A stretch of 51,286 nucleotides of DNA from a virus (IMGVR_UViG_3300045919_000132:1-51286); one strand, 5' to 3'. Positions 3,486 to 49,526 are shown, counted from the first letter of the stretch. The notes: a model not told the origin generated them from the letters alone. Translations and numbers: made by a program.

Positions 3486-3504
3486 TTATAGATGGTATCT
3501 ATAA
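3486..3504. repeat. Palindrome A copy
   Basis: ttatagatggtatctataa. Confidence 0.9.
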
Positions 3505-3520
3505 GTATCGGGACCACATG

Positions 3521-3871
3521 TCATAATGCCATATGCTCCGAGATAGGTGCATCATAAATGATGTAAACCTGATTTTCTGTCAAATCCTCCTCAACCTTGG
3601 GAGGAACTACAGCAGGGGGTTTGGGTTCAACCTTGGGTTTCTGTGGACGCAACAACGCTGCCTGTTGTCGTTCTTGTTTACGTACCATACGGCGCTCCTG
3701 CCGAGTCTGTGCTTGCTTGACAACAACAAGACGCTTTGGCCCCTCATCTTTATCAAACCCAAAAGAACAAGCAGCTTTCTTGCAGTTAGCCAAAGCAAAA
3801 TTACGTATGTAAGTCTCAGTCCCGCCCGTAAACTTGAATTTGCATTGCTTGCAAGTAAGTTTAATAGTCAT
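3521..3871 (-). CDS. Hypothetical protein with N-terminal Cys motifs
   Basis: MTIKLTCKQC...CKKAAC; GGAGG RBS before the ATG at 3871. Confidence 0.65.
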   Translation of the reverse strand: MTIKLTCKQCKFKFTGGTETYIRNFALANCKKAACSFGFDKDEGPKRLVVVKQAQTRQERRMVRKQERQQAALLRPQKPKVEPKPPAVVPPKVEEDLTENQVYIIYDAPISEHMAL

Positions 3872-4046
3872 CGAAGTCCACCTCCGAAAAATCATCAAGA
3901 GCAGTAATATCATCATCAGTAGGAAGAAGATCATCTTTTATTTCTTCGGAGCATCCGCCACAAAGTTCGAGGGGAACCTTAGTTCCATGATAGTTGCGGG
4001 ATTCCTCAAAGGGTGTGAGGATGACTTGACAAGCAAGGCATCGCAT
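3861..4046 (-). CDS. Small zinc-finger phage protein
   Basis: MRCLAC...LCGGC with acidic tail; coupled to the upstream stop (TAATG). Confidence 0.7.
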   Translation of the reverse strand: MRCLACQVILTPFEESRNYHGTKVPLELCGGCSEEIKDDLLPTDDDITALDDFSEVDFDDY

Positions 4047-4630
4047 TATGCCGGACCTCGGACAAGTCCGGGCCTGCGGCGAGGCGGTGCCGTAGCCAAA
4101 CGATTTGCATCCTGCATCTGTCGCAATGCCTCTATAGGATCATAATTCAATCCCTGTGCTTGATTGTTATTTGGCCGACCCACGACACCCTCCACTCGAA
4201 CCGCATTAGCAAGGCCCTGAAGAGGCTGCCGAATAACAGGTTGCTCAAGCCAATCAAAGTCAGCGGGGTTGATCCGGGGCGCATCCACTGCCACTTTAAC
4301 TGCGGGTTTCTTCTTGGTAGCTTTCTCCTCCTGTTCTTTATCCCAATCTTCCTTGCTCAAAGGCTGCAAACGAAATACTTCAATGTTCACGGCAAGTTTC
4401 TCGGGAAATGCTTCCAAATCCTTGTTGAACATGCGGAACACACCGCTGTGCTGTGATTTGAGCGACACCAGCTTGCGGCTGCTCTCAACCACACAGATGA
4501 TGTTTCCGGGAACAACATAGTCCTGAAGTTGGATCGGAAAATAGACTTGAACGGGTTGTCCTAAATCCGTAAAAAACTGAGGATCGAGACGGAAGGATAG
4601 GACTTTATCCTGTTCAACGGCGACTAGCAT
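4046..4630 (-). CDS. Hypothetical protein
   Basis: 194-aa ORF tightly packed in the operon. Confidence 0.65.
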   Translation of the reverse strand: MLVAVEQDKVLSFRLDPQFFTDLGQPVQVYFPIQLQDYVVPGNIICVVESSRKLVSLKSQHSGVFRMFNKDLEAFPEKLAVNIEVFRLQPLSKEDWDKEQEEKATKKKPAVKVAVDAPRINPADFDWLEQPVIRQPLQGLANAVRVEGVVGRPNNNQAQGLNYDPIEALRQMQDANRLATAPPRRRPGLVRGPA

Positions 4631-5411
4631 TCATTTCTCCCATGAGGTTGACAACTGCATTGGCGTAATTGTTTACCGTTTGGCCCGACAAGCCGGGAGC
4701 GGTGTTGACTTCGAGGACGTAGCACTTGTTTTCTTTTTCGTTGTAGATAACGTCAACGGCTCCGAAGTGGAGTCCAAGTGCCTGTACGGCGGAAACAGCA
4801 AGTTCGTCCAAGCCTGTCGGTTTCTGGATATTCTCTCGGCAAAAAACCCATCCGTTCTGATAGGATCGAACTTGGTAGTTGACTTGATCATTTGGGACCT
4901 CCTGACGTTTCTTTTTCTGTTGACAATCGATTACTTTTCTACCAAAGACATGGACTCGATACTCGTGCTTTTTTGGGATATATTTCGTATACAATGGTGC
5001 ATTTGTAAACTGCTCTCCCGAACACCTGACAATTCCGCGACCAGAGTGCCCGTTAAGCGTTGTGCGCGCAAAAATAGCTCTTTCCGCTGCCCATTGTCGG
5101 GCAACTCCCATATCGGTAGTGAATTCTGGGCACGGTACACCTCTCTCAGCAAATCGATTAAACGTTGCGAGTTTATTAGAAGCAATCGCAACCGCTGCTC
5201 GGGAGTTGACAAGATTGGGGGTGCTGAGTCCCGTTGATGCACTTGATCCCCAATTGATATAAAGCCGGGAGTTTTTGACACGATGCGTCTTCGATTGGTT
5301 ATCGACCTGAAAAACTTTGGATTTGAGTAGTTCAGTTAAGCGTGCTGCTAGAAGGCGCGAGGATGCGCTCCCCATCTTGTACGGCATCAATACGGGTTTC
5401 TTGAGTTTCAT
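4614..5411 (-). CDS. ATP-grasp peptide ligase (RimK/phiEco32-like)
   Basis: NKLATF, GHSGRGI, EYRVHV, FGAVDVI, VLEVNTAPG. Confidence 0.9.
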   Translation of the reverse strand: MKLKKPVLMPYKMGSASSRLLAARLTELLKSKVFQVDNQSKTHRVKNSRLYINWGSSASTGLSTPNLVNSRAAVAIASNKLATFNRFAERGVPCPEFTTDMGVARQWAAERAIFARTTLNGHSGRGIVRCSGEQFTNAPLYTKYIPKKHEYRVHVFGRKVIDCQQKKKRQEVPNDQVNYQVRSYQNGWVFCRENIQKPTGLDELAVSAVQALGLHFGAVDVIYNEKENKCYVLEVNTAPGLSGQTVNNYANAVVNLMGEMNASRR

Positions 5412-6801
5412 CTTTCTTCTCCGCTCTGTTGAAACGCTTCATAACACAATTAGCGCAAAACACACGCCCGATACCTTTGGTAGTACTCAATTCCACAGAT
5501 GTGAACTGCTGCTCCGCATCTTGAATCAATGCGGCACAATCGTTGCATTTGTGGTGACTTGCAACACGTTTCCAAATGGTTTGTGGAACCCGACGCCTAT
5601 TCCACAACTCAACCATCGTAGGCCCAACAACATCCTTGAGGCGTATCCACGGGCCGTTTACGGTTACCCCGGAAGATACAACTGTTCCGGACAACCAGTT
5701 GTCGCCGTTGCTGTCTTTTTCGGTTGAATCTGCAATGTCTGCTACCTCGCCCGTCCAATCGGCATCTCCGGTAATGTCAATTTGAACTCCCTCAAAAACA
5801 ACATTGCCTGTGGTGGCAACAAAAGGCTGGTTGGTGGCTGTGTTTAAAATACGCTGAAGGCGCGTTACTTTGAACTCAAGTTCTTTGCCAACAGCATATG
5901 GTGCAATGGCTCGTGTCCAAACTTGTCGAATGTCGGAAGTAGGTTCATTAGTTGCCCGCGTCTCTAGCGCCGGAGCAACGACCGCCTTGTCCTTGTCCGT
6001 AGACAAATTAGAGGGGCGGTCAACAAAAGGGTAACCATCTCCACACTCGGATTCACACATACCCGCATAGTTGTGTTGAACCGTAGTGCCCCACGCCTTG
6101 GGCCTGTACTCGGTGGCAGTAAATTCCTCGCCGGTTTGAAATTCCAACATTACGTGGGGATCGAGAGGAGAAGCTTTGCCGATCTTGATGGCACTGTGTC
6201 CGCGACGGGCAGGCCCGGCGGCACCCGCAAGCATCCACGGTTCGGATGCCACCATCCAAAGACGTTCCGTTTCAGCAATCCAGAGAGGACGTTCCGGGTT
6301 ACGTGCAATCCGCAACGTCTTGTCGCGCTTGTCGTACCACACAAGAGCATAGGCACCGACGATGCTTTCCAGCACTTCTTTGGCAGGCTTGTTGTTCAAT
6401 CCACGGGCGAGGGCTTGACTATCGACCGCCGCCTTCTGATCAAACATCTGGGCGTTTCCGATGTATCCATTGTGAATCAGAATAATGTTGTCTTCAAGAA
6501 ACGGATGGGAATTGGCCGATGAAATCTGCCCAACAGTTGCCTTGCGGTTATGCCCAAAAACCATGTTGAATGACCGAGTGATCTTGCTCTTGAATTTGTC
6601 GTACTCCATCAACTCGACAAAGTTGGAAGCATTGGTGCCTTGTTTGGTCAGATACGCCTGCTTGTTCTGATAGACACCAAAACATCCTGTGCCGTCCAAT
6701 CCACGGACTTGGTTCATGAGAAGCATGTCCGTAAATATGTCTGCTTCCGGCGCATAAAAACCGGAAGATTTCTTTGCGATCAAACCAACGATGCCACACA
6801 T
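5332..6801 (-). CDS. Class II (Ntn) glutamine amidotransferase with a long C-terminal extension
   Basis: MCGIVG, RGLDGTG, GHNRKAT, HPF, HNG, DSQ; C-terminal CNDC...CANC. Confidence 0.92.
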   Translation of the reverse strand: MCGIVGLIAKKSSGFYAPEADIFTDMLLMNQVRGLDGTGCFGVYQNKQAYLTKQGTNASNFVELMEYDKFKSKITRSFNMVFGHNRKATVGQISSANSHPFLEDNIILIHNGYIGNAQMFDQKAAVDSQALARGLNNKPAKEVLESIVGAYALVWYDKRDKTLRIARNPERPLWIAETERLWMVASEPWMLAGAAGPARRGHSAIKIGKASPLDPHVMLEFQTGEEFTATEYRPKAWGTTVQHNYAGMCESECGDGYPFVDRPSNLSTDKDKAVVAPALETRATNEPTSDIRQVWTRAIAPYAVGKELEFKVTRLQRILNTATNQPFVATTGNVVFEGVQIDITGDADWTGEVADIADSTEKDSNGDNWLSGTVVSSGVTVNGPWIRLKDVVGPTMVELWNRRRVPQTIWKRVASHHKCNDCAALIQDAEQQFTSVELSTTKGIGRVFCANCVMKRFNRAEKKDETQETRIDAVQDGERILAPSSSTLN

Positions 6802-6805
6802 AACT

Positions 6806-7702
6806 TTATTGCTTCCTCTTCAGAAAAACGTTGAACGGAGATTCCGTTGAAACACCGGAAAGAAGTTGATTTGTTACTGCCTTCCCGTGGAGAGCCGAGA
6901 ACACAGAATCAATTCCTTTTCGACACAGTTTGAAAATTTCTTTGTGGGCAATTACCTGCATAACATCAGAAGAAAACACATTCTCAAGAAATGCACGGGG
7001 GCCTGTGGACTCAAGAGTTTTATAGACAGTATCTATAGTTGTGCGGCGGGCAAACAGAAGTAGGTCATTGATGATCCGGAGCCACATAAAAACCTTCTCT
7101 TTGTCTCGGCACCCCGGCATGTGTCGGAATTCAACCGTTCCAAGATCAACCAACCGTGTAAGATTCAGCGCACTATATTTCTCCCATGAGCCAACAGCAC
7201 GATGCTGACTAGTGATCAGGTTTCCAATCAAAGTATCGGGATACGTCGTCTCCACAACCGGAACACAAAAGATACTACCTGCCCGGTCAGAGGAGGCGTA
7301 GTCAAATAAAATGCGTTCGACAACACAATAAGTTAACAGCAGAGTTTGTAACTGCTCCCATGAAAAATCGCGCACATTCACATGCACATGGATGGAAGTA
7401 CGCTGCGAAAATGACCAATCCGCAGGAAGCCCGTTCCACATCAAGTCCACAGCTTCGACGATAGCTCCACCGGAGCAGGGTACAGACACATACTCAACGC
7501 CGCCATTTCGAAGACTGCCATCAGTGTGGGAGTTCCACAACGTCCCAAACATCTCGTGCTTGAAGCTACCGTGACGGCTCCTCGCATTCTCAACTTCTAA
7601 CTCGATCCCGCAAACAAAATTGGGATCAAAGGGAGATTCTTTCTTGGACTGCACAACGTCCAATCGATTGGGCCATTGGTACGTCTTAGCGAGGGGCGTC
7701 AT
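6806..7702 (-). CDS. Putative amidoligase (COOH-NH2 ligase superfamily)
   Basis: GIELEVE, TDGSLR..GVEYVS, SIHVHVN, KYSALN, GTVEFRH; start set at ATG 7702. Confidence 0.88.
   Translation of the reverse strand: MTPLAKTYQWPNRLDVVQSKKESPFDPNFVCGIELEVENARSRHGSFKHEMFGTLWNSHTDGSLRNGGVEYVSVPCSGGAIVEAVDLMWNGLPADWSFSQRTSIHVHVNVRDFSWEQLQTLLLTYCVVERILFDYASSDRAGSIFCVPVVETTYPDTLIGNLITSQHRAVGSWEKYSALNLTRLVDLGTVEFRHMPGCRDKEKVFMWLRIINDLLLFARRTTIDTVYKTLESTGPRAFLENVFSSDVMQVIAHKEIFKLCRKGIDSVFSALHGKAVTNQLLSGVSTESPFNVFLKRKQ
7021..7037. repeat. Palindrome A copy inside the amidoligase CDS
   Basis: tatagacagtatctata. Confidence 0.85.
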
Positions 7703-8300
7703 ATACTTTCCTTTGAAATACAGGGTGAAGGGGCGTCCTAACCAACGTATCCTCGCTGACCGTCGCGATGGGAGTTTGATGGTGGAACAAAAGAAAATCC
7801 TTAGCTTTGGTAATGCTAAGTCCCACCATAAACTCCGAAGAGATTCCCACACAGTAGCTAGTCCCGTCCTTGAGCATTTGAATAGCCGTTGCAAAGTCTG
7901 GGTATGTGGGCCGGAACATGCTGTCTGCCATCCACAATTCCATGGATGGCATCAGAATCAACCGATTGGTCGTGTAGAAATTCCCACGAGTGGAAGTGCT
8001 GGCACACAAGGCCCGTTTATTTTGACGAATCGGTCGCCGAAAAAAGGAATAGCCGATGTTGTTAAAGTTGAATACCCCAGTTGCAGGAAACTCAAAATTA
8101 ATCTCGCCCTCACCGCCATAACGGACAATCTGCGTTCCCGCCAGTCCCTGCAAAGCAAACGTAGGGGCCGCATTTTCTCCGGGATAGATTGCCGCCAACG
8201 AAACAGTTTCAAACTCCTTGTTCGAGGTGGGTTTGTAGCGAATGTAAGTGTGGAGATAGCGAAGAACAAGGTCTTCGTATAACCGGCCAAAATCAATCAT
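7686..8300 (-). CDS. Hypothetical protein of the ligase cluster
   Basis: 204-aa ORF overlapping both neighbours (ATGA coupling at its start). Confidence 0.7.
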   Translation of the reverse strand: MIDFGRLYEDLVLRYLHTYIRYKPTSNKEFETVSLAAIYPGENAAPTFALQGLAGTQIVRYGGEGEINFEFPATGVFNFNNIGYSFFRRPIRQNKRALCASTSTRGNFYTTNRLILMPSMELWMADSMFRPTYPDFATAIQMLKDGTSYCVGISSEFMVGLSITKAKDFLLFHHQTPIATVSEDTLVRTPLHPVFQRKVYDAPR

Positions 8301-9094
8301 GCAAGACCCTGTTCAGCAAACGCACGAATCTCCGGCAAATAACGCTTGTCGGAATTGTTGATGGTGTGAACGATCTTGTAGGAAATGTTGTCACCTGCCA
8401 AACCATTCACATCCGGGAGCGTGGCTTTGCCTTTCTCGACAAAGGTAAGGGCTTTCTCTGTCTGCCGATACGCCCACTCCATCAGTTCCCTCGACTTGAT
8501 CCACGCATTACTCGCGGTGCGATACTCGATGCCATAAGGCTTGCGGCGGAACGCCCCTGCCTTGCCATAGAGTTTGCGTCGCTCGGTGTCTTCGTCAAAC
8601 TCCAACATCTCGCAGCCAACGAACACATCCATTGCACGGACAACTTGCTCAAAGTTGTACTTCTTCCAATCAAAGCCAACATGGATGTGACCACCTGCAC
8701 TGCGAAGATTGGCTGCTACATTGGTCGGCCTCGGATTCTGTTGACGAGTCCACGCATTGAAGTCCGGGTCACACCCAAACACACGGGATTCCGGGGTTTC
8801 AAGTTGCTCCCACGGAAACATGCCGGAAGGCTCGATAGCCAAGACCAAACCCAACTTTTCAGCCTCGGATTTCAAGTAGTCCATATTGTAGTCCAGCTTG
8901 GCAACAAACGACTCGATGCTGTCGCAGGGTGGAATGTTGAACTCGACAGCTACGTTGTCCTCTTGGACAGCACATCCCTCACCGATAGGTTTGGGTGCTT
9001 CCTTGGTTCCTCCGATCAATCCGATGGAAGAAACAAATTCGCCTGCTGCATTACGCAAAAACAATTCCGGATCAGCACCAATAGTGAAGTTCAT
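8297..9094 (-). CDS. phiEco32-like COOH.NH2 ligase type 2
   Basis: TIGADPELFL, QEDNVAVEFN, GCDPDFNAW, RSAGGHIHVG, RRKLYGKAGAFR, YGIEYRT. Confidence 0.93.
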   Translation of the reverse strand: MNFTIGADPELFLRNAAGEFVSSIGLIGGTKEAPKPIGEGCAVQEDNVAVEFNIPPCDSIESFVAKLDYNMDYLKSEAEKLGLVLAIEPSGMFPWEQLETPESRVFGCDPDFNAWTRQQNPRPTNVAANLRSAGGHIHVGFDWKKYNFEQVVRAMDVFVGCEMLEFDEDTERRKLYGKAGAFRRKPYGIEYRTASNAWIKSRELMEWAYRQTEKALTFVEKGKATLPDVNGLAGDNISYKIVHTINNSDKRYLPEIRAFAEQGLA

Positions 9095-11026: not shown

Positions 11027-11039
11027 TGTTTATAACTCC

Positions 11040-11929: not shown

Positions 11930-11953
11930 TTACTTGCAGGATAATGGGCATGT

Positions 11954-12289
11954 TTACAGTTCTCCGTCGTTCTCGTAGTACATGTCATTCACAAATTCCC
12001 GCACCACTTGATGAGCCAGTTCATTCGGCTCTTTCTTGACGGTGTAGGGAATCTTCTTCATGCGGCCTTCCGCAATCTGGCGACCGGTTTTCTTGTTGAA
12101 TACATCATTGCCACCACAAGTAGCAACGCCGACCAGAATCGTCTCGTTATCGACCTCGGTGAACGCAGCAGTGTAGCCGTTGCGCATGTAGCCCTTACCG
12201 ACAGGCTCGAAATGCATGGTCTTGGTGGTGTTGTGGACGAACTTGGTAACAGCGGCTGCAACTGAGGCAACGGTAGTGCGAACTGGCAT
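11954..12289 (-). CDS. Phage hypothetical protein
   Basis: C..NDVFNKKTGRQIA motif typical of small phage proteins; AAGGA RBS. Confidence 0.8.
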   Translation of the reverse strand: MPVRTTVASVAAAVTKFVHNTTKTMHFEPVGKGYMRNGYTAAFTEVDNETILVGVATCGGNDVFNKKTGRQIAEGRMKKIPYTVKKEPNELAHQVVREFVNDMYYENDGEL

Positions 12290-12327
12290 TTTATATCCTT
12301 GTTAAAAGTTATAGACAGTATCTATAA
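12286..12327. repeat. 42-bp direct repeat copy 1 (palindrome A + half B + RBS + ATG)
   Basis: gcattttatatccttgttaaaagttatagacagtatctataa, identical to 13922..13963. Confidence 0.95.
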
Positions 12328-12516
12328 TTAAGCGGGAAAAACGTACTGCTCAAACTCGGCGAAAGCATCTTCGCCAGAGGCAACATTGATTTTGGTTACG
12401 GGTTGTTCAGGGGAAAAAAGCTCTCCAGAGGGGGGTGAATCGGCCGAATCGTAAAACAACTCGGTACAGGTGACACACAGTTCGGGCTTACCGCATTGCC
12501 CACAAAAATGGCTCAA
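12328..12516 (-). CDS. Small Cys-motif hypothetical protein
   Basis: CGQC...CVTC; TTG start. Confidence 0.5.
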   Translation of the reverse strand: MSHFCGQCGKPELCVTCTELFYDSADSPPSGELFSPEQPVTKINVASGEDAFAEFEQYVFPA

Positions 12517-13676: not shown

Positions 13677-13682
13677 AGTACT

Positions 13683-13925
13683 TCAAACAAATGCCACATC
13701 GTCAAACGAGGGGCGATCTTCGGGAAAGACTTCCTCGACAATAGGGAAACGAGCCAAACCTCGTGCAGTACGGAATTCCTTCAGGTGTTTGGCCGATTGA
13801 ATGGCGTCGTGGGCGGTGAAGGCCTCGACGGTTCCGATGTTTTCGAGGTTGGATTCGAATTCATCCGGCTTGTTGGGGCGTTGAACACGGGTCACACGCT
13901 GTTGCTGGAACAGAGAGAAGAGCAT
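13683..13925 (-). CDS. Hypothetical protein
   Basis: 80 aa; starts within repeat copy 2, with an AAGGA RBS. Confidence 0.75.
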   Translation of the reverse strand: MLFSLFQQQRVTRVQRPNKPDEFESNLENIGTVEAFTAHDAIQSAKHLKEFRTARGLARFPIVEEVFPEDRPSFDDVAFV

Positions 13926-13963
13926 TTTATATCCTTGTTAAAAGTTATAGACAGTATCTATAA
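13922..13963. repeat. 42-bp direct repeat copy 2
   Basis: Identical to 12286..12327; palindrome A at 13945..13963. Confidence 0.95.
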
Positions 13964-13965: not shown

Positions 13966-14048
13966 TGGTGCCCGATATGGGAGTCGAACCCATATGCTTG
14001 CGCGAGGGATTTTAAGTCCCTTGTGTCTACCATTTTCACCAATCGGGC
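13966..14048 (-). tRNA. tRNA-Leu (TAA)
   Basis: GCCCGAT acceptor stem, AGGGA-CTTAAAA-TCCCT anticodon arm, long variable arm, GGTTCGACTCC, encoded CCA; 83 nt. Confidence 0.95.
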
Positions 14049-14283: not shown

Positions 14284-14382
14284 TTTTTATCCTTGTTAAA
14301 AGTTACAGTTTGACAGACCAAGAACCATTTGGCAGTGTAACAACCTGCCATTTGGTTTGATCAACCCAACCTGCACCCATGA

Positions 14383-14839: not shown

Positions 14840-15046
14840 TTGAATCTCCTTAATCACGGCAAGACGCCGCGATGTGGTGTGTATCGACCGTGACGCACAC
14901 CACACGCGAGGCACCCTACAGAATGATGTCAGGTTGAGGTGGGAAGGGCCACGACTCGGTGCGTTGAGTGCGCCAGTGATCTCGGGCCATGTTGCAGACA
15001 ATCCGCAACAAAAAAGCGTATTGAGTGGGAATCAGAGGATAAGGCA

Positions 15047-15187
15047 TCATCCCACCTGTATGTCGCAACGGATTGGAATCATCCTGCCATGCCGAGCCAT
15101 GCACTCGAAACGATGCACATCCTTAGCGTTGTACCAATGACGATTGGCTTGGAGTTCAATCCAACGCCGGGTAATGGATTGGAACAT
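15047..15187 (-). CDS. Small early protein (46 aa, not in the ORF track)
   Basis: AAGGA RBS directly after palindrome A; MFQSITRRWIELQANRHW... Confidence 0.5.
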   Translation of the reverse strand: MFQSITRRWIELQANRHWYNAKDVHRFECMARHGRMIPIRCDIQVG

Positions 15188-15200: not shown

Positions 15201-15245
15201 TTATAGATGGTGTCTATAATTAAGTTATAACCCTGTTAAAAGTTA
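15201..15245. repeat. Palindrome A (15201..15219) + palindrome B (15221..15245)
   Basis: ttatagatggtgtctataa-t-taagttataac-cct-gttaaaagtta. Confidence 0.85.
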
Positions 15246-15367
15246 TTGATTGAACAGCAGGACGTTGCGAGCAAACCACAACGGATATCCCTGCAAGCGC
15301 AGGTAAGTGGCAGCCACTTGCGTGTTGCGATGGATTGCCAACCAACGGGCATTGCGAACGTCGCGCA

Positions 15368-15908: not shown

Positions 15909-15983
15909 TTTGTTACCCCCGGTACACGGCAAGACGCCGCCGTTAGCCAATTGTATATCGACCCAAAAGGCTAACAGAGTGCC

Positions 15984-16269: not shown

Positions 16270-16821
16270 TAATTAACAGGGTTGTTGTACCCGCAATAGG
16301 CAGATACAACATACTGCTAACTAACCTAAGTGTCACCAGAGATTTTTACGGCATACAGAACCTAATCTCTGCCAAAGGCGTTAGAAATACGTGAAGCGTT
16401 TCGTTTTATAGTTAACGTCCGACTCTGTTTAAGGCTTGGCAATCTTCACTGTGCTTAACGGGTTGAGCACTCCAAGCGGGCAGTCGTATAGGGTTCACCG
16501 GACGTGTGGCCCACCGAACTTATAGACAGTATCTATAAGTTATCGATTTGCCACCACTGTGTGTCGCATGGTTCAGTGGGTTCATTCACCCACCGTGCAG
16601 GGAGATAGTCGGGTTCCATAGGCGTTTCACAACGTACCCATGCGCTCCCTAATACCTATACACGTTTTAGCCATGCGCGGCGTACTTCACACAATGCATT
16701 ACTTAATCAAAGGGGAAAAGAACGAGAACTTATAGACAGTATCTATAAGTATGGGTTGGTTAAGATCGGCGATACCCGAACAACACTGGTTGGCGGGCAC
16801 TGCACTACTAGGACTTCCCCA
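16270..16821 (-). ncRNA. Putative large structured non-coding RNA / 5' leader of unknown family
   Basis: No credible ORF. Starts ~7 nt downstream of a sigma70 -10 box. Nested and abutting complementary segments, G-U pairs and a GNRA loop on the minus strand (see findings). Confidence 0.6.
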
Positions 16822-17134
16822 TGACATATTATACCACACCCCTAGAAATAAGCAAGCAAATCCCGGCACCCAATGCGATAGCTAGAAGAGCCTCTCCTAA
16901 TCCGGTGACACCCCACTCTCTAATTATAGATAGTGTCTATAATTGCCCGTAGTTTAAACACGGTGCCCCACCTACTGGAAACTGTTGTGCCACAACGATC
17001 TCCACACGCAACTGTATATCGACCTTATCTTATAGCCTAAGCCCGTATGATAACAACGGGTGCATTGCACACCCATAGGCGCAGACAGTGCTGTTTGATT
17101 GTGTGGGTACACATAGATATAGATGGTATCTATA
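16520..17134. repeat. Four regularly spaced palindrome A copies
   Basis: 16520..16538, 16730..16748, 16924..16942, 17118..17134. Confidence 0.9.
16828..16855 (-). promoter_or_regulatory. sigma70-like early promoter
   Basis: TTGCTT-16nt-TATAAT with extended -10 TG. Confidence 0.75.
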
Positions 17135-17238
17135 AGTATCCCGTGCATTTTTGTTTATCGTCCCCTGTTTATCGACCCATGCACCGGAACGGTGCACTCG
17201 CTCGCGCAGCGGTGCCGGTGGCGCACAAAATCAGGGCG

Positions 17239-17265
17239 AAAAAAAACCGCGCCTTTCGGCGCGGC
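17239..17265 (-). terminator. Rho-independent terminator
   Basis: CCGCGCC-GAAA-GGCGCGG-TTTTTTTT. Confidence 0.9.
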
Positions 17266-17289
17266 TCAAGTGCTACGGTGTGGGGCGCG

Positions 17290-18111
17290 TTACGCTTTCG
17301 CGGTACGCTTGCCTTTCGGCGCGTCAGACTTGATGCCTTTCCGCGCCTTGTGCATTGCGCCTTGTATCACAGTCACGGCTGCGACATGCGCCGCTTCTTT
17401 GCCTTGTTGTTCGCGCCACGCCTGCATTGCGGAGGCGCTTTCCTTCGCATCGACAAGGGTCAGGATCGCAAGCAAGTCAAGCAAACACTGGGGGGCCGCG
17501 CCTTGGATTTTCGGCGCAACCGCCTTGCTCTTGACGGTCTCAACCTTACCCGCTAGTGCCGTGTGCGCCGATGCGGCCCATGCTGCGAGGGTAGGCAATT
17601 TGCGCGGGGCCTGTTCGACGGCATTGGCACGAGCAAAGTACTTTCCCATTTCGTTAATGTAATGCGAAGCGGAGCCGCGCACCTTGAGCAGGTTTTCCCG
17701 AATTTCCGCATCGCGTGCCGTAGGAATTTCACCCTTGGCAAGACGCTTGACTTCTGGAAAGGCTTGCTTGTATGCCTTGAAGTACAAGGCATGTTCCAGA
17801 GTACCCTTTAGGGCCAGATAGTCCGGCGACCAGCCGTTTTCGTCTTTTGACTTGTCAAAGCATGACGGCCCGAACACGTTCGGCGCAACCATGCTCATTT
17901 CAAGCCACTGGCATTCCCGTTCGGCATCGTTACCGAAAAGCTCGAGGAATTTCGTTTCAAAGCCTTTAGCTGTTTTGATGCCCATGATCGCATCGCGTTC
18001 CTGCGCCTCCTTGAGCGCCAACAATTCGGCCTGCGATGCGGCCGGCAGGGTTTTGGAAACAGCCGCGACACTGGCCTTGACTACGGGTTTTGCTGCTTTG
18101 GCGTTAGCCAT
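17290..18111 (-). CDS. Ala/Lys-rich early protein, function unknown
   Basis: 273 aa, AAGG RBS, has its own terminator. Confidence 0.85.
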   Translation of the reverse strand: MANAKAAKPVVKASVAAVSKTLPAASQAELLALKEAQERDAIMGIKTAKGFETKFLELFGNDAERECQWLEMSMVAPNVFGPSCFDKSKDENGWSPDYLALKGTLEHALYFKAYKQAFPEVKRLAKGEIPTARDAEIRENLLKVRGSASHYINEMGKYFARANAVEQAPRKLPTLAAWAASAHTALAGKVETVKSKAVAPKIQGAAPQCLLDLLAILTLVDAKESASAMQAWREQQGKEAAHVAAVTVIQGAMHKARKGIKSDAPKGKRTAKA

Positions 18112-18192
18112 GGTGTTACCTTTCGCGCCGATAACGCGGCGCATCGTTGGGACTAAATGCCCCGATATGCCCCTAACGGCATATCGTGGAAT

Positions 18193-18390
18193 TCAGAAAG
18201 GCCAGTTTTTTTCCCGTTCGGCAAGTTTTGCCTTAACCCGTTCGGGGGCCTTGTAATCGTAGGCACTCCAATTCATACGGTGCGCCGCGACATACCGGTA
18301 ACGCACATGGCGCGAATTGAATCCCGCACATTGCACATGCGGGTAGTTCCGAAGCAGATACCAGACATAGAACCTAGTCATTTCATACAC
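18193..18390 (-). CDS. Small early protein
   Basis: Follows the promoter at 18414..18442; GGGAG RBS (true start probably a slightly downstream ATG). Confidence 0.65.
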   Translation of the reverse strand: MYEMTRFYVWYLLRNYPHVQCAGFNSRHVRYRYVAAHRMNWSAYDYKAPERVKAKLAEREKNWPF

Positions 18391-18469: not shown

Positions 18470-18486
18470 TATAGAGGGTGTCTATA
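18470..18486. repeat. Palindrome A copy
   Basis: tatagagggtgtctata. Confidence 0.8.
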
Positions 18487-18753: not shown

Positions 18754-18770
18754 TATAGACACCATCTATA
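18754..18770. repeat. Palindrome A copy, inverted orientation
   Basis: tatagacaccatctata = reverse complement of tatagatggtgtctata. Confidence 0.85.
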
Positions 18771-19138
18771 GTTGTAACGGTTTAAACGGTATAAACGGTT
18801 TAAATCCTTACTGGGTTCATGGGTATTGTCGGGGAGGGAGATCGATCGTATCCCATTGAATTGTATGCAATGCAATTGGACGCAATAGAACGGCCTACAA
18901 CGAACGAACGAGGCTTCAAGCTACCTACCCCTCAACCTGTACTACAAATCGATTCTAGATGCCTCCTGATCGATTCTAGAGGCATTATATGAAGGGGGTG
19001 GGGGGGAAAACATGCTGGCTTGATATTTGGGGAGAGAGGCAATGATATATTGCTATAATTTTATGGGGGGATGACGTTTTAATTATAAAGGCGAAGCTCG
19101 GCGATAAAGCCAGCCTCGCGTTGAAGTTCTATGGGGAG

Positions 19139-19237: not shown

Positions 19238-19265
19238 GGGTAACATATAAATCGTCTTAAGTCAA
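19237..19265 (-). promoter_or_regulatory. Possible leftward sigma70 promoter
   Basis: TTGACT-17nt-TACCCT with extended TG. Confidence 0.45.
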
Positions 19266-43306: not shown

Positions 43307-43428
43307 TTGGGTTCCTTTGGTGGCGGATTCGGACGTGGCCTTGTTCGTTTGTGTCGATGATCAAGCCTTGTGGTGTTAGCCATCGAGTAGTCCCGTCGTA
43401 GTTAAGCAAAGGAATATCCAACGAGTGG

Positions 43429-45102: not shown

Positions 45103-45237
45103 TAGTCCTCTTCAAATGCATGACCCACACAAGGCGGAATCTTATATTTCTTAATTTCGGCCTCTGCCTCATATTCTTCCAGAACCCTTCGTTGGTATTG
45201 AAGGGTGCCCTTCCTATCTTCCGACTCTCGTTGGCGA

Positions 45238-45408
45238 TTAGTCTTCGTCGTCTTGTTCAAAGTCTTCCTCAAGCTCGTCATGTTTCCGCTCTATTAAATC
45301 CCAAAACCGTTCAACCAGCATTTCCGAATCAATGTCTAATACCTCAAGTAAAGAAATTTCGTCAATCCTAGTCAGTCGAGATTTAAGCTCCTCCAGTGTC
45401 AGTGCCAT
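45238..45408 (-). CDS. Small acidic phage protein (56 aa, not in the ORF track)
   Basis: MALTLEELKSRLTRIDEISLLEVLDIDSEMLVERF... Confidence 0.7.
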   Translation of the reverse strand: MALTLEELKSRLTRIDEISLLEVLDIDSEMLVERFWDLIERKHDELEEDFEQDDED

Positions 45409-45556
45409 ATTGTTCCCTATACATTTTCATCCGCTCGTCATACATGTCGTATGAATACCCAAACAAAATAAAATCCTTAATTGTTTCCGGAATATTCCGT
45501 CGTTGAAGTTCTTTGAGCAAATTTTCAGTCGTTACAGTCTCGATTGTAAACATTAA

Positions 45557-45967
45557 TTAGACCCCATTCTTTTTGTCATAGGAACGTGCGCCAACATAAC
45601 CCAGATACCCAACACCAAACAAAGTCCACATAGAGTCAGGAATAGCCTTAAGCCATAATCCAAATCCTGCAGCAATACGTGCAGCAACGTCAGGCTCAAA
45701 GGCAGAAAGAACACCCATAGGCAAACCAAACAGAATACAAATGTAGACGACATAGAGAAAGCTGGGTCGCGCTCGGCTCGTCCACGGATCAGTGCTGTTA
45801 GCTTCTGCCATGATTGCACTAAGTTGGACTTTAACTTCATCAAGGTTTCCAGCACGCTCTGCCTCCATGACAGCAAGTTTTGCTTTGTTTTTTTCTTCTT
45901 CTGACGGAAAGTATTTCCCGATCAGGTCAAATAAGGGGCCAACAATAACCCCGGCCAAATTACCCAT
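45557..45967 (-). CDS. Holin-like protein (GTA 3TM holin family)
   Basis: AEANS.DPWTSRARP...GYLGYVGARSYDK; GGAGG RBS. Confidence 0.8.
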   Translation of the reverse strand: MGNLAGVIVGPLFDLIGKYFPSEEEKNKAKLAVMEAERAGNLDEVKVQLSAIMAEANSTDPWTSRARPSFLYVVYICILFGLPMGVLSAFEPDVAARIAAGFGLWLKAIPDSMWTLFGVGYLGYVGARSYDKKNGV

Positions 45968-46320
45968 TAAACCTCCGAAAATTCAATTGGGATGCCATTG
46001 CGAGATGCAAACTCAATCTCTTTCTTGACACCATAACTCTCGCCCCAACCGGGCATCATATAAACAATCATTTTGTCGCAGTGCTTGAGCAACGCAAAGT
46101 CTTGTAGCAGCCACCAATCACCAGATTTAACGTCCGGCATTCCGATAGTTTCAATTGGATGACTGTGGGCAATCGGACAAAAAACAAGGTAGCCCTCGGC
46201 CATCAACTTAGCTGCTTTGATACATACTTCTTCGTATCGCTTTTGCTTTACATCCGGATCAGGGTGGCTGTAAGGACTAGCCAGATAAACCAACTCAGGG
46301 GTATCAGACACGGTACACAT
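45967..46320 (-). CDS. DUF1937-like (nucleoside deoxyribosyltransferase-fold) protein
   Basis: YLASPYSH, PIAHSH, W...D...L..CD, GWGESYGV..E. Confidence 0.8.
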   Translation of the reverse strand: MCTVSDTPELVYLASPYSHPDPDVKQKRYEEVCIKAAKLMAEGYLVFCPIAHSHPIETIGMPDVKSGDWWLLQDFALLKHCDKMIVYMMPGWGESYGVKKEIEFASRNGIPIEFSEV

Positions 46321-46549
46321 CTCCATTCTCTTTGATTTTTTGTTCTTCGTAAACTCGACCAACACGAGCATAAAACTCTAGTTTAGCGCCTTCAAGTGCT
46401 CCAATAATATCGTTAATAGTCTGGTAATTTTTGCGTGAATCCCAATATTGGATTGCGAGACAAGTAAATGCAAAGTTAAGTTCTCCGGGAGTTTCAGGAG
46501 CACCTGTCAATTCTAAACGGTTTCGATCTTCTTGTTTAATGTAAGGCAT
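46304..46549 (-). CDS. Conserved phage protein (DUF6899-like)
   Basis: MPYIK...PGELNF...GALEGAKLEFY....YE..K..ENGDVY. Confidence 0.75.
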   Translation of the reverse strand: MPYIKQEDRNRLELTGAPETPGELNFAFTCLAIQYWDSRKNYQTINDIIGALEGAKLEFYARVGRVYEEQKIKENGDVYRV

Positions 46550-46959
46550 TACACATTCTCCTGATACACTCGTTCACGGTCCATTTGATCTGGTTTCCAG
46601 CGATCATCTAGATCGGGCCGATGTTTCGTAAAATAACTGAGAAACATCCAGCAACAACCAAGGTGATCAACATGAAGTAAACCGCTTTCGGGATCAATGT
46701 CTTCTCCGCGTTGAATAGAAGCAAGATGGCGATGAATTGCAGCAATAAGACGAGAGTAGCTGATACCACCTCGCCAGTTATGTTCAGCATATTTTTTTGC
46801 TCCAAAGGTCAGGACTTGTGCCAGTCCTTCAAGTGCATCAGGGTCAAGCAAATCCATACGAGGTTTGTCTTGATCAAACTTCATTCCCGTCGGAGGGCTA
46901 CCCCCAGTATCAAAATCACTACGTAGAACCCAAGTATCATTCCCAGCATCTTTAGCCAT
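46549..46959 (-). CDS. dATP/dGTP diphosphohydrolase-domain protein (DUF5664-like)
   Basis: KFDQDKPRMDLL, GAKKY...NW..G, RH, GEDIDPESGL.H..H. Confidence 0.85.
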   Translation of the reverse strand: MAKDAGNDTWVLRSDFDTGGSPPTGMKFDQDKPRMDLLDPDALEGLAQVLTFGAKKYAEHNWRGGISYSRLIAAIHRHLASIQRGEDIDPESGLLHVDHLGCCWMFLSYFTKHRPDLDDRWKPDQMDRERVYQENV

Positions 46960-47713
46960 ACTTCCTCTCAAGGTAACCCAACGACACATACATGGGCATA
47001 AAGTGCCCTTCATTGACCTCATGAAACATCCACAATCCTCGGTCATACGTATTGCCTTGCGGACCAAGATAATCCTCATTGTGCGTGTAACACGAGCCTG
47101 CAAACAGCGTAATGATTGGCTTACCATCCCCGCGAACATCTCGATTCATATCCCAATTCTGCACATGGCCCATAACGCAGGACATGTGTTTCTTGACTGC
47201 TAGTTGCCTAGCATTCGGCACAGGACGCCCCATAACCCCTGAAGTGAAATAGTGAGAGTAAGCGATGCCGTCAATAACAACAATTTCAAGAAAAGGATAA
47301 ACTTTCCATCCTGCTTCCGCATACCCTAAGTCTTGGGTGGAGAGGACTCCCTCAAGTTTAGCGTCGTTCTCGACAGCCTTGACAATACGATTTTCATGGT
47401 TGCCAAGAGTGAGGTGGAGTTCCGGAGTATACTGCTTTGACTTATTTTTTCGGCGCTGGTCGTTGTATCGATTAAGTGGCCCAAGCAGAGTAGCCATAGC
47501 TCGCTTTGTTGCAGCAACGTCATCGATGTACCGCCTACCCTCGAATGATTTTTTTCCCACATCATAAGACGAAAGGCTAGGCATATCAGCGAAATCTCCC
47601 AAGCAGATGATTTTTTCAGGCTGCTTTTCAACAATGTACTTACCAATTCGTTCGAGATACTCAATATCTACTCCCGGTTTTACTTGACAATCAGGTACGA
47701 CCAAATGTTTCAT
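46952..47713 (-). CDS. Calcineurin-like metallophosphoesterase
   Basis: PDCQ, LGDFAD, GNHE, SH, GHVQ. Confidence 0.9.
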   Translation of the reverse strand: MKHLVVPDCQVKPGVDIEYLERIGKYIVEKQPEKIICLGDFADMPSLSSYDVGKKSFEGRRYIDDVAATKRAMATLLGPLNRYNDQRRKNKSKQYTPELHLTLGNHENRIVKAVENDAKLEGVLSTQDLGYAEAGWKVYPFLEIVVIDGIAYSHYFTSGVMGRPVPNARQLAVKKHMSCVMGHVQNWDMNRDVRGDGKPIITLFAGSCYTHNEDYLGPQGNTYDRGLWMFHEVNEGHFMPMYVSLGYLERKYG

Positions 47714-47721
47714 AAGACTCC

Positions 47722-47898
47722 TTATTGTACTGTGTCTGGACCTTCAACAATTTGATTGTCCTCAATATACTTAACTGCGCCATTTCGAACCATTGTGGTA
47801 ATAAACCATTTCACCATTGCCGAGACTTGTTTTTGATCGAGTTCCGTCTTAAATGTAATAGTACCTTCTGGGGTTTCAACAACTTCACTGATTTGCAT
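47722..47898 (-). CDS. Small hypothetical protein (58 aa)
   Basis: MQISEVVETPEGTITFKTEL...; AAGG RBS. Confidence 0.6.
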   Translation of the reverse strand: MQISEVVETPEGTITFKTELDQKQVSAMVKWFITTMVRNGAVKYIEDNQIVEGPDTVQ

Positions 47899-48229
47899 TA
47901 CTTACCTTTTTAAAGAACCATTCTGCGTCCACTAGGACCAATGGTTTTGACCTGTTCTGTTTAATCACTACGAGTGGCTCTAAATCTCCTGCGTTAGCTT
48001 GAGCTTGTTCATAGAATTTGTATACGGCAATTGCCTTGAGGTTCTTACATTCAATGGCAAAGGGGTGTTGGAGTTTGGCGGCTTGCGATAGTTGAATATC
48101 GACCCCGGTCTGGCCCATGCCAGTTGATCTTACATCATCAGAAGTTAGGGTCGGCGAGTGCATCAAGATCAGGTCGCGCACTGTCTGCTGCAAGCTCCGC
48201 CCTTTCGCTTTCGCGGAAGAAGTCTTCAA
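47885..48229 (-). CDS. Holliday junction resolvase-like PD-(D/E)xK nuclease
   Basis: AKAKGR.LQ, GVDIQLS, IECKN, EPLVVIKQNR. Confidence 0.85.
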   Translation of the reverse strand: MKTSSAKAKGRSLQQTVRDLILMHSPTLTSDDVRSTGMGQTGVDIQLSQAAKLQHPFAIECKNLKAIAVYKFYEQAQANAGDLEPLVVIKQNRSKPLVLVDAEWFFKKVSNANQ

Positions 48230-48461
48230 GTTCTTTCCTATATGGTTCATTTAAATCATCAAGTGTTTGTGCGATGGCGTAAAGAACTTCGGCGGGCAAA
48301 TACCCACCTTTTTTATCCGGCCACCAATCATAAAACCCATCCTCTTTGACAAAAACCTCACCCATGTCTACACTATTTTCATAATGTAGTGTGTAGCCGG
48401 CCGGTGATCGTGCTCGAAGATAGACCAATTTACGATAATTAGTCACCCATTTTCTCCACAA
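48138..48461 (-). CDS. Phage hypothetical protein
   Basis: EDGFYDWWP...IAQTLDDLN motif. Confidence 0.65.
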   Translation of the reverse strand: MWRKWVTNYRKLVYLRARSPAGYTLHYENSVDMGEVFVKEDGFYDWWPDKKGGYLPAEVLYAIAQTLDDLNEPYRKELEDFFRESERAELAADSARPDLDALADPNF

Positions 48462-48572
48462 TTTTATAATTTAATAGATGGTCGCCATCAGTAAGAACAA
48501 AATGTATTAAATCTTCCCTTGTGTTAAACTTTTGATATTTAACACCTGTAGTGTACGTCAATTTGGCAAGAA

Positions 48573-49298
48573 TCATGCGTGTACTAACTCCAGTTGCTCT
48601 TGCAAAAACGGCCATTCAATCTCAGGGGTACGGAGAATCCAGAGCAGCTTGTAGTTTAGATTGAAAGCATCTTTGTCGTGGTACAAGTTGTAAGTATAGC
48701 GGAACGCCTCTTCTGGTTCGAGGGCTGATAAATCTTGGAGAGTTCCAAGAAGAAACTGAGGCACTGTGGTTCGGGCACGCCCGTCATATCCCATGACATT
48801 ATCGGATCGGTCACCAAGAACCATTTGCGTCCAAAAGTTTTTCCATCCTTCTTGTTCTGTGACATTCGTAAACTCCTTTTTTACAAAGTTGTAATGACGC
48901 CCCGGTACTTGGAGCAAGTCTTTATCAATAGAGCAGATTACTGTGTCGGTTCCTGTTGTTTGATCAATCCCAAGCTGGTCATCGGTTTCAATCCCGTCAA
49001 CAAAAAAGGCGTCCCAATGATCAACAAGGTAGGCTTGAACGGCACCGAGGTAAGTTGGCGGAGGAGTTGTTCGGTTTGCTTTATATTGTTGGCTAATCTT
49101 TTTGCGGAAGTTTCCTGAGCCGCCAAGAGGGAGGCGATACACAGTTGCTTCGACATCGTGAATAAGGTCTTGTAACAAACCTTCTGTCCGATGTACTGCA
49201 TCGTCCAACGTTTCCAAATAAGGCTTGGATTTCGTGGGTTCGCATGAAGCTGCGCAACGAAATGCAACGATGTCACCATCGATTAAGGCAGTTGTCAT
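48573..49298 (-). CDS. 5'-3' exonuclease (T7 gp6 / FEN-like)
   Basis: LIDGD, NFR, YKANR, ETDD, SIDKDL, GDRSDN. Confidence 0.92.
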   Translation of the reverse strand: MTTALIDGDIVAFRCAASCEPTKSKPYLETLDDAVHRTEGLLQDLIHDVEATVYRLPLGGSGNFRKKISQQYKANRTTPPPTYLGAVQAYLVDHWDAFFVDGIETDDQLGIDQTTGTDTVICSIDKDLLQVPGRHYNFVKKEFTNVTEQEGWKNFWTQMVLGDRSDNVMGYDGRARTTVPQFLLGTLQDLSALEPEEAFRYTYNLYHDKDAFNLNYKLLWILRTPEIEWPFLQEQLELVHA

Positions 49299-49447
49299 TA
49301 GTAAGGGCGGTCCTCAATGATATGGCTTTCTAGTTTGAATTTATGCACATGTTCAATCAACTCGTTATACAACGGAATCAACACTTCTGGAGGAGCATGT
49401 TTTGCTAATACAGCACTGTAGTACATGATTTTTTCTTGCAAAGTCAT
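49298..49447 (-). CDS. Small hypothetical protein (49 aa)
   Basis: MTLQEKIMYY...; TAATG coupling to the exonuclease. Confidence 0.5.
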   Translation of the reverse strand: MTLQEKIMYYSAVLAKHAPPEVLIPLYNELIEHVHKFKLESHIIEDRPY

Positions 49448-49503
49448 TTTTATTCTTATTCTCCATTACATTGCGTAACGGTCAAATCCTCTCCCGAGGA
49501 TAT

Positions 49504-49526
49504 AGTTATAGATAGTATCTATAACT
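49504..49526. repeat. Palindrome A copy (extended, perfect 11-1-11)
   Basis: agttatagata-g-tatctataact. Confidence 0.9.

Follow-up and report, generated by a model that had tools for sequence, protein, structure and literature searches.

The virus record IMGVR_UViG_3300045919_000132, which was analysed over its whole length (51,286 bp; 'the window'), contains twelve exact copies of a palindrome, TATAGA-N5-TCTATA, all of them in one of its two transcription arms. The record represents a whole IMG/VR virus with an estimated completeness of 100%. A 28 bp repeat is found at both ends (1–28 and 51259–51286, 96% identity), and the assembly is therefore taken to be circular. The minus-strand arm (1–18.8 kb and 42.7–51.3 kb, 53% of the window) carries a family A DNA polymerase in two open reading frames (ORFs; 57–1241 and 50418–51137), a DnaB-like helicase, a primase which is T7-like by PHROG, a ribonucleotide reductase, a 5'-3' exonuclease, a MazZ-like domain, a metallophosphoesterase, and a cluster of ATP-grasp, GATase, amidoligase and phiEco32-type ligase genes. 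Many small ORFs of this arm have no family match. The plus-strand arm (19.3–42.7 kb) contains the terminase, portal, capsid and tail genes and encodes a protein of 1687 residues. A tyrosine integrase match was not found in the window, and the phage is lytic-looking. The Rfam scan of the window returned two tRNAs and nothing else; tRNA-Leu is located at 13966–14048 and tRNA-Thr at 49586–49661, both on the minus strand.

Among cultured phages, Alcaligenes phage vB_Af_QDWS535 (OK172329.1; terminase 63% and helicase 53% identity) is the nearest relative; it has the same gene order and likewise a split polymerase. The split polymerase is also annotated in Methylophilales phage MEP401 (Zobellviridae in its record), which together with two spring-water records represents the further relatives. 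A related helicase is encoded on 463 viral contigs, and the phage group is large, mostly uncultured and environmental. The early genes are not conserved among the relatives, as judged by BLASTP presence or absence. The copies of the palindrome are as follows, with centres given on the strand indicated.

3487–3503, minus strand: centre TACCA; between the stop of ORF 3521–3934 and the ATG at 3459
7021–7037, minus strand: centre TACTG; inside the amidoligase ORF 6806–7894, encoding TIDTVYK
12310–12326, minus strand: centre TACTG; 21 nt before the ATG of ORF 11954–12289
13946–13962, minus strand: centre TACTG; 21 nt before the ATG of ORF 13683–13925
15202–15218, minus strand: centre CACCA; 14 nt before the ATG of the 46-residue ORF 15047–15187
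16521–16537, minus strand: centre TACTG; fourth of an array, ORF-poor DNA
16731–16747, minus strand: centre TACTG; third of the array, approximately 75 nt downstream of the promoter-like site 16855–16828
16925–16941, minus strand: centre CACTA; second of the array, upstream of the promoter-like site 16855–16828
17118–17134, minus strand: centre TACCA; first after a terminator, preceded by GGTCGATAA (17177) and GGACGATAA (17163)
18470–18486, minus strand: centre CACCC; leader upstream of ORF 18193–18390 and of a 284-residue ORF
18754–18770, plus strand: inverted, centre CACCA (plus strand); control region
49507–49523, minus strand: centre TACTA; perfect 19 bp palindrome around one central base

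An earlier note on this DNA had listed these twelve starts and reported invariant arms, one polarity in all copies except the inverted 18754, and no copy between 19.3 and 42.7 kb. All of this was borne out, the last point by exact as well as by mismatch searches. The arms are identical in 12 of 12 copies and the plus-strand centre is (Y/G)RGTR in 11; read on the sense strand, 11 copies have C as their central base and copy 18754 has G. Not a single exact copy occurred in 100 dinucleotide-preserving shuffles. When up to two mismatches were permitted, the number of copies remained at 12 (0.92 expected), while three mismatches gave 23 matches in total, 11 of them extra, against 12.65 expected. 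Matches with three mismatches are thus at chance level, so that a halo of degenerate copies does not exist. Among spacers of 0–15 bp only the 5 bp spacing occurs, and the everted arrangement has no copy. The confinement of all twelve copies to the minus-strand arm has a chance probability of about 5e-4 by our own arithmetic, given that this arm makes up 53% of the window.

The 17 bp unit described in the earlier note is exact as a core, but alignment of the 12 copies showed the conserved unit to be wider, namely a 23 bp dyad with the sense-strand consensus A-n-T-TATAGA-YACYR-TCTATA-A-n-T. Conservation in the flanks amounts to 12 of 12 copies for A at -11 and to 10 of 12 each for T at -9, A at +9 and T at +11. 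Positions +/-10 are not conserved and are complementary in only four copies. The arms do not contain any G-U-type or compensatory variant. As in operators of dimeric DNA-binding proteins, the half-sites are invariant, their spacing is fixed, the centre is tolerant, and conservation is mirrored out to +/-11. An asymmetry which might set a direction was found nowhere except in the centre, and copy 49507 is a perfect palindrome.

The AT-rich stems are not followed by a T run and none of the 12 copies appeared in terminator scans, which argues against an intrinsic terminator. As RNA, the copies are predicted to form hairpins of -3.4 to -9.8 kcal/mol. A seventh pair (U-A or U-G) could be closed in 9 of 12 copies on the sense strand as compared with 5 of 12 on the antisense strand.

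Most sites are at gene boundaries, 11 of the 12 copies being outside family-supported ORFs. As stated in the earlier note, four of them (3487, 12310, 13946 and 15202) precede a Shine–Dalgarno-like sequence and an ATG, at a distance of 14–28 nt, and two follow tRNA 3' ends, that of tRNA-Leu by 3 nt (13946) and that of tRNA-Thr by 62 nt (49507). Copy 18754 is followed by an ATG one base later, the coding status of which is doubtful, and adjoins three short direct repeats (accgttta-like, 18775–18800). Copy 7021 is indeed located within an ORF matching Amidoligase_2, in the frame acT ATA GAT ACT GTC TAT Aaa. The stretch of amidoligase concerned is poorly conserved, and comparison with seven homologues did not reveal an insertion. 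Four copies, 193–210 bp apart, form an array in an ORF-poor kilobase directly after a terminator-like hairpin. The distance between sites increases from approximately 0.2–1.6 kb in the early region to 3.5–5.3 kb in the replication module, and the copy inside the amidoligase ORF fills the longest gap. This pattern suggests that regular coverage of the arm by sites matters.

Several translation starts near palindromes have a common leader, which consists of an AU-rich tract, AAGGA, an AU-rich spacer and ATG. Its five copies (plus coordinates 3464–3492, 12291–12319, 13927–13955, 14285–14313 and 15225–15253) are positioned directly after a palindrome in three cases, before one in one case, and after GGTCTGTCA in the remaining case. 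The leader looks similar to the strong leader of T7 gene 10. In the region 2511–3459 (minus strand), the ATG at 3459, which has a good leader after palindrome 3487, opens an ORF of 61 residues, while the primase ORF starts at GTG 3422 in a different frame; this may represent a frameshift or a separate small gene.

The flanks of the copies are unrelated except for three pairs sharing 42, 25 and 23 nt (the 42 identical nt being those of copies 12310 and 13946). Because the flanks are mostly unrelated, the core itself appears to be kept by selection rather than as part of a larger repeat. This bears on the idea that the copies are boundary repeats, spread by duplication, which serve recombination and gene shuffling without any trans-acting reader. 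The gene-boundary positions in a plastic early region, the three pairs with shared flanks and the lack of conservation of the early genes would agree with it. The PeSL cassettes of T4-type phages are comparable in that they, too, are short repeats placed where small early genes adjoin one another in plastic regions (PMC2839356). A PeSL comprises a strong sigma70-like promoter and a terminator hairpin (PMC2839356), whereas the present repeat has only 23 bp and is neither promoter nor terminator. Further, all 12 cores are perfect in spite of mostly unrelated flanks, and a conserved enzyme gene harbours one of the copies, which has been maintained there. We therefore give boundary repeats a very low probability.

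Signals for transcription and the two ORFs that are discussed below as possible readers of the palindrome are listed here.

17244–17267, minus strand: terminator-like hairpin, 10 pairs (7 GC) and T run; after the 284-residue early ORF
16828–16855, minus strand: sigma70-like promoter, TTGCTT-16-TATAAT, perfect TG-extended -10; inside the four-site array
50382–50410, minus strand: sigma70-like promoter, TTGACA-17-TACACT, TG before the -10; directly upstream of the helix-turn-helix (HTH)-like ORF
50590–50563, minus strand: sigma70-like promoter, perfect TTGACA, TG-extended -10
2816–2788, minus strand: sigma70-like promoter, perfect TTGACA, TG-extended -10
2501–2473, minus strand: sigma70-like promoter, perfect TTGACA, TG-extended -10
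50201–50365, minus strand: 54-residue HTH-like ORF, weak family matches; the sole candidate DNA-binding protein found
17290–18144, minus strand: 284-residue ORF, the first sizeable early ORF (273 residues from the second ATG); flanked by palindromes

The array of four sites had been described as lying after a terminator, in apparently untranscribed DNA. The first part is correct, as the hairpin 17267–17244 precedes the sites 17118–16521, but the promoter-like site 16855–16828 is located among them. Because of this site, which the four copies bracket, the kilobase of the array is probably transcribed. On the sense strand the palindromes do not overlap any of the scored sigma70-like promoters, and a -10-like hexamer at fixed offset was not found outside the palindrome core. 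A plus-strand promoter match (12299–12328) overlaps site 12310 since its second hexamer is part of the palindrome. The leftward early promoter of the record was not identified, the best candidate being TTGACT-17-TACCCT at 19265 (8/12). The leftward promoters of QDWS535 and of a further relative, G001, are far stronger (12/12).

The surrounding region has some features of its own. Between 14.3 and 18.8 kb the G+C content is 0.515–0.523 as compared with 0.467 overall, and there are few convincing ORFs besides that for the 284-residue protein. The segment 16270–17245 folds better than shuffled sequences (z -4.0, 20 shuffles). Non-coding RNAs are possible in this stretch. In the control region, two 15 nt direct repeats with TCTAGA and ATCGAT (about 18945–18990) are found upstream of the 18775–18800 repeats, and AT-rich simple repeats occur in the divergent part at 19.1–19.3 kb. 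The repeats of the control region may represent an origin or further regulator sites.

Twelve whole or nearly whole records, including the present one, were examined for multi-copy palindromes. Four of them contain such an element, each with a sequence of its own. QDWS535 has ten copies of TCCTAA-N2-TTAGGA (spanning 25208–48092 of OK172329.1, locus L189). In G001 there are 13 copies between 11.5 and 27.8 kb, 11 of them TTAACA-N1-TGTTAA and two with N2, and G009 has 14 copies of TTACA-N3/4-TGTAA between 1.8 and 50.8 kb (0.135 expected). No multi-copy palindrome was detected in the other eight records (G003, G005, G006, G007, G010, MEP401 and the two spring records). The copies are in the non-structural arm in 12 of 12 cases in the present record, 10 of 10 in QDWS535, 13 of 13 in G001 and 12 of 14 in G009, which makes 47 of 49 in total. 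Among 80 helicase loci (+/-10 kb each), two have such an element (L160, which is G001, and L168, which is G009); loci L156 and L158 were flagged for AAGAA-N7-TTCTT (four copies).

A pattern search with the 19 nt form of the present palindrome gave 15 loci in viral_contigs with one match each and no multi-copy element; in metagenome_contigs, the matches listed were single ones only, as were those listed for the degenerate 17 nt pattern in viral_contigs, which we consider chance matches; near-identical records may have been absent from the collections searched. Conservation in relatives, on which the earlier note had made the significance of the motif depend, thus applies to the type of element, with analogous palindromes in three relatives, but not to the exact motif, for which no multi-copy occurrence was found elsewhere among the matches listed. 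A BLASTP search for ORFs which the record shares with QDWS535 and G001 alone (G009 being outside the set) revealed only a holin, which is irrelevant here.

Most copies in the three relatives are at gene boundaries. In QDWS535 and G001 the majority of the palindromes separate a stop codon from the ribosome site that comes next, and the AGGA of this ribosome site is, in QDWS535, often provided by the right palindrome arm. Both phages have a 12/12 sigma70 promoter followed by the first early gene (211–237 residues) and terminators. Every palindrome is downstream of this leftward promoter and inside the leftward unit, none overlaps the promoter, and one is located 5–6 nt before the terminator following the first early gene. 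The order promoter, palindrome(s), first early gene, terminator and more palindromes recurs in QDWS535 and partly in G001, which has no palindrome between promoter and first gene. The centres in QDWS535 are TG, CA and TA (three each) and CG (one), so that 4 of 10 copies are symmetric and the other six are split 3:3. In G001 polarity of the centre is mixed (8 C, 3 G). The predicted RNA hairpins have about -4.3 kcal/mol in QDWS535 and -0.5 to -3.6 kcal/mol in G001.

Might the palindromes be promoters, or promoter cores, for a phage-specific transcription machinery which reads the 23 bp element? A length of 23 bp is the size of the promoters of single-subunit polymerases. A tandem array of four copies heads the arm after a terminator, other copies are found 14–28 nt before start codons, 11 of 12 are co-oriented with the inverted one pointing towards the plus-strand arm, and the sequence is lineage-specific. 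A polymerase of this kind, however, was not found. The six-frame search for T7-like RNA polymerase (PF00940) was empty, although the control genomes were silent too. The 1687-residue protein was considered as a virion RNA polymerase and rejected, since it did not match anything in Pfam, PHROG or PDB and looks like a 'polyvalent' virion protein, to which the ESM Atlas likened it. In addition, the minus-strand arm has sigma70-like promoters of its own (50590, 50410, 2816, 2501 and 16855), perfectly symmetric copies (49507 and 4 of 10 in QDWS535) cannot set a direction, and a -10-like element at fixed offset is lacking outside the core. A promoter function is consequently held to be highly improbable.

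Equally improbable in our view is a box for a host regulator or nucleoid protein. In this case the differing palindromes would be explained by differing hosts, and it would fit that a convincing phage DNA-binding protein was not found in three of the four palindrome-bearing lineages. But no match to a box was obtained, promoters do not coincide with the sites, and we know of no regulator with a box like this palindrome.

The reading which we prefer, with a probability of roughly 0.4, is that the palindrome is a 23 bp dyad site in duplex DNA for a phage-specific dimeric protein, situated inside the leftward transcription unit. It argues for this proposal that identity rather than pairing is conserved: the stems do not show wobble or compensatory variants, and conservation at +/-11 extends across the non-pairing positions +/-10. 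The stem is fixed while the centre is free, as would be expected if a dimer read two half-sites separated by about one turn of the helix; in the RNA hairpin–protein pairs known to us, it is the loop which is read. All copies of the record have the same 5 bp spacing, and copies are all-or-none (12 perfect, none with one or two mismatches, chance level at three). RNA hairpins are predicted to be weak, those of G001 in particular. The copy within the amidoligase gene fits into a variable stretch without an insertion, and two sites flank the promoter-like site 16855–16828. Polarity is not required in QDWS535, as indicated by its symmetric centres and the 3:3 split of the others. Different palindromes in relatives are to be expected for rapidly evolving pairs of protein and site.

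A site for a dimeric DNA-binding protein had been favoured in the earlier note as well. This interpretation is still the best one on account of arms, symmetry and the 5 bp spacer, but the argument from untranscribed DNA fails. Nothing was found in support of the variants proposed along with it, a parS-like loading site or a mark for DNA entry.

A dimer bound to about 12 sites might hinder or organise host RNA polymerase on the minus-strand arm only, modulating its passage or re-initiation there. Such a multi-site operator could switch the early/replication arm down or up, leave the structural arm untouched, and thereby act as a timing switch between early/replication and structural genes. It might operate in the manner of the stoperators of cluster A mycobacteriophages or through loops between flanking operators. 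The candidate reader would be the 54-residue HTH-like protein, or alternatively the 284-residue first early protein. Duplex ligand, dimeric reader, identity of the protein and regulatory outcome are what we infer from the DNA sequence.

The 54-residue ORF, proposed in the earlier note as an HTH protein, exists at 50201–50365, and its family matches are below the curated cut-off: Sigma70_r4 was found with an E-value of 2.6e-4, Mor with 0.004 and KorA with 0.05, and six-frame searches agree. It has its own promoter with a perfect -35. It is missing from the four related records tested (QDWS535, G001, G009 and G003) and has no relative in viral_contigs; a single protein with 82% identity is encoded on a 1.2 kb contig. 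An AlphaFold model shows two long helices and, where the turn is predicted, a break. The pairing of a record-specific HTH protein with a record-specific palindrome is suggestive, albeit as a weak link. Matches to HTH_3, RHH_1 or Arc were not obtained in the record. For the 284-residue protein, no family and no relative in viral_contigs or metagenome_contigs was found, one 44% identical protein being encoded on a 2.2 kb contig. The first early proteins of the record, QDWS535 and G001 do not show mutual similarity. A crude HTH regular expression, applied to the small ORFs of the relatives, gave spurious frames only and was abandoned.

A number of observations weigh against a duplex site. The spacer varies in G001 (N1, N2) and G009 (N3, N4), which a hairpin would tolerate better than a rigid dimer. 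In the record, 11 of 12 copies have one polarity; this could, as an assumption, result from the way in which the copies were multiplied, TACTG being the centre of five of them. The palindromes of four lineages are confined to one transcription arm (47 of 49), as predicted for an RNA signal. The sites miss the consensus early promoters of the relatives and are therefore not classical promoter operators. The candidate reader is itself uncertain: with Sigma70_r4 it scored 20.9 bits (Pfam cut-off 24.1), its AlphaFold model is of moderate quality (pLDDT 70.5), and the fold search with this model matched no solved fold. Finally, six-frame searches for Sigma70_r4, HTH_3, RHH_1, Arc and Mor were empty in QDWS535, G001 and G009, so that a protein specific to each palindrome has no candidate in these three.

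Several of these points would be accounted for if the palindrome acted as an RNA hairpin on leftward transcripts, which would be bound by a protein and would serve in terminator read-through (nut-like, with reloading along a long operon), in translational repression of the cistron that follows, or in processing. An RNA role had been kept open in the earlier note; it remains the main rival but ranks below the duplex site, and we consider it unlikely. Beyond the confinement to one arm, the nearly uniform polarity and the variable spacer, which suits a loop, it is favoured by the recurring layout of promoter, palindrome, gene and terminator in QDWS535 and partly in G001, by the palindrome just before the terminator in both phages, and by the many copies that abut a Shine–Dalgarno sequence or start codon, with the AGGA ribosome site in the right arm in QDWS535. 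The seventh pair, which is more often possible on the sense strand, and the better-than-shuffled folding of 16270–17245 point in the same direction. On the other hand, the stems are AU-rich and weak in all three phages for which energies were predicted, none of the 12 copies has compensatory or wobble variation, and it is the loop that varies whereas the stem does not. QDWS535 shows no polarity, and that of G001 is mixed. Moreover, family scans of the early ORFs did not recognise an arginine-rich N-like protein or an RNA-binding family. In our ranking the duplex site comes first and the RNA hairpin second, followed by promoter, host box, recombination boundary and single-strand hairpin, each of which carries little weight.

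The last of these concerns single-stranded DNA and is best considered together with a second motif in the same arm, the sites of which are listed here by their first bases.

2028, 5307, 6427, 12155, 13368, 14467, 14889, 15963, 17024, 17177, 44410 and 48104, minus strand: GGTCGATA
9938 and 17163, minus strand: GGACGATAA, which brings the second motif to 14 sites

All 12 copies of GGTCGATA are on the minus strand, where 0.99 were expected. Ten of the 14 sites are inside ORFs and four in ORF-poor DNA. Variants are found in the relatives: GGTC(G/T)ATCA in QDWS535 (16 of 16 on one strand), GGTCTATC in G003 (9 of 9 on one strand) and GGTCGGTC in G007 (8 of 8 on one strand), while G001 has the motif on both strands (7 and 6 copies). 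The variants carried by the relatives (GGTCGATCA, GGTCTATCA, GGTCGGTCA/C and GGACTATCAAC) are located on the gene-sense strand of the same arm and do not keep a constant reading frame.

Two ideas on this motif were dropped. An in-frame bias of GGTCGATAA, seen for 9 of 10 in-ORF copies of the record, is absent in the relatives, where the frames are mixed. An explanation of the palindrome arm TCTATAA as a doubled GGTCGATAA is not general, as the palindromes of QDWS535 and G001 are unlike their GGTC motifs. GGTCGATAY at 15963 and at 14889 (minus strand) has the same 15 nt sequence, cggcgtcttgccgtg, 13–15 nt behind it; this sequence occurs twice and can form a small hairpin.

In its statistics, the second motif resembles the nick sites of Pseudomonas phage tf. 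These are described as having a 9 nt consensus, with 14 sites on one strand and 11 of them in the left half, and the main variant is stated to differ between relatives among tf/LUZ24-like phages (PMC3517423). Both motifs have 9 nt, occur in 9–14 copies on one strand and are concentrated in the early half (PMC3517423); G001, with copies on both strands, differs from the tf pattern. In tf, nicks were demonstrated by experiment (PMC3517423), whereas the present motif is known from sequence statistics.

These parallels touch on the question of whether the palindrome might be a single-stranded DNA hairpin, or a cruciform, with a role in replication, priming or nicking. The dyad symmetry with a tolerated loop, the accompanying strand-specific motif which begins with GGTC, and the T7-like primase would be in accord with this. 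The centre of 6 of the 12 copies (TACTGT/TACTAT) equals the first six bases of the tf nick consensus, although that consensus continues differently (PMC3517423). However, the stems are short and AT-rich, and there is no clear reason why a replication signal should be confined to one arm. A single-strand hairpin is thus given as little credence as the boundary repeats.

It is conceivable, though we regard it as quite unlikely, that the palindrome and the GGTC-type motif are two halves of an undescribed cis-acting code which marks the non-structural arm in the widespread environmental podophage group to which the record belongs. In such a code, a lineage-specific hairpin or palindrome would be read by a fast-evolving phage protein and a family-wide linear word by a conserved factor. 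The sites might serve for repeated reloading that keeps host RNA polymerase terminator-resistant, or the linear word might represent programmed nick sites.

A side observation concerns the amidoligase/GATase/ATP-grasp cluster. The adjoining ORF 46549–47139 (minus strand) matches the N-terminal domain of dATP/dGTP diphosphohydrolase (PF18909, E 1.3e-31), and its position beside the cluster hints at nucleotide-pool or base modification.

We did not find a paper on such elements in this phage group, supplements, which possibly contain motif tables, not being covered, and the words promoter, palindrome and RNA polymerase do not occur in the text of the MEP401 paper. Comparison is therefore with unrelated systems. 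The core TAGA-N5-TCTA has the inverted-box layout of the Arc operator of phage P22, which consists of two inverted TAGA boxes; unlike P22, the record is without an Arc or RHH_1 match. Phage lambda has two nut sites, where a small arginine-rich protein reads the boxB loop. Common to lambda and the record are a lineage-specific hairpin and a more conserved linear element, positioned after the early promoter and before terminators. Unlike in lambda, there are 12 sites, the loop is variable while the stem is fixed, and the early-ORF scans did not reveal an N-like protein.

In cluster A mycobacteriophages such as L5, stoperators are regarded as sites at which elongating polymerase is halted once one phage protein has bound. 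They are asymmetric 13 bp sites of the immunity repressor of a temperate phage and occur in both arms. As with the palindrome, many copies are scattered within transcription units, where they occupy short gaps between genes and are oriented along the direction of transcription. The palindrome shares their number and gene-boundary placement but is a dyad, is restricted to one arm, and occurs in a phage without an integrase match; it is thus not an asymmetric 13 bp site of a temperate phage.

Of the phenomena described so far, the SAS/ESAS pair of cluster K mycobacteriophages comes closest. In these phages, 11–19 copies per genome of an asymmetric repeat and an inverted-repeat element are found in the non-structural half, in near-uniform orientation and at the starts of a subset of genes, and the consensus differs between sublineages (PMC3203893). 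The record offers a parallel in its 12 palindromes and 12 copies of the asymmetric GGTCGATA in the non-structural arm; the placement is of the ESAS type, with 12 of 12 palindromes in that arm and four of them 14–28 nt before an ATG. ESAS is described as imperfect 17 bp repeats with a 4–13 bp spacer, tied to the start-codon SAS GGGATAGGAGCCC (PMC3203893), whereas the palindrome has perfect arms and a fixed 5 bp spacer, and the two motifs of the record are only loosely linked. SAS itself has no match in the record at up to two mismatches, and cluster K phages and their hosts are unrelated to this phage. The function of SAS/ESAS was still unverified in 2025 according to a recent paper (PMC12699233).

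By its distribution, the palindrome would belong with dispersed intra-operon regulatory repeats, which are a known type, its function being a prediction. It is rare for perfectly conserved sites to be scattered within a single transcription arm, and the known cases, stoperators and SAS/ESAS, either represent a special form of gene silencing or are unexplained after more than 10 years. If a multi-site operator or a reloading signal were confirmed, it would show how a 25 kb early/replication arm is timed apart from the structural arm, and would provide a timing mechanism for phages without an RNA polymerase of their own. As QDWS535 is a cultured member with its own element, the question can be tested at the bench. 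The two-part code, if true, would be the Gram-negative counterpart of the unexplained SAS/ESAS system.

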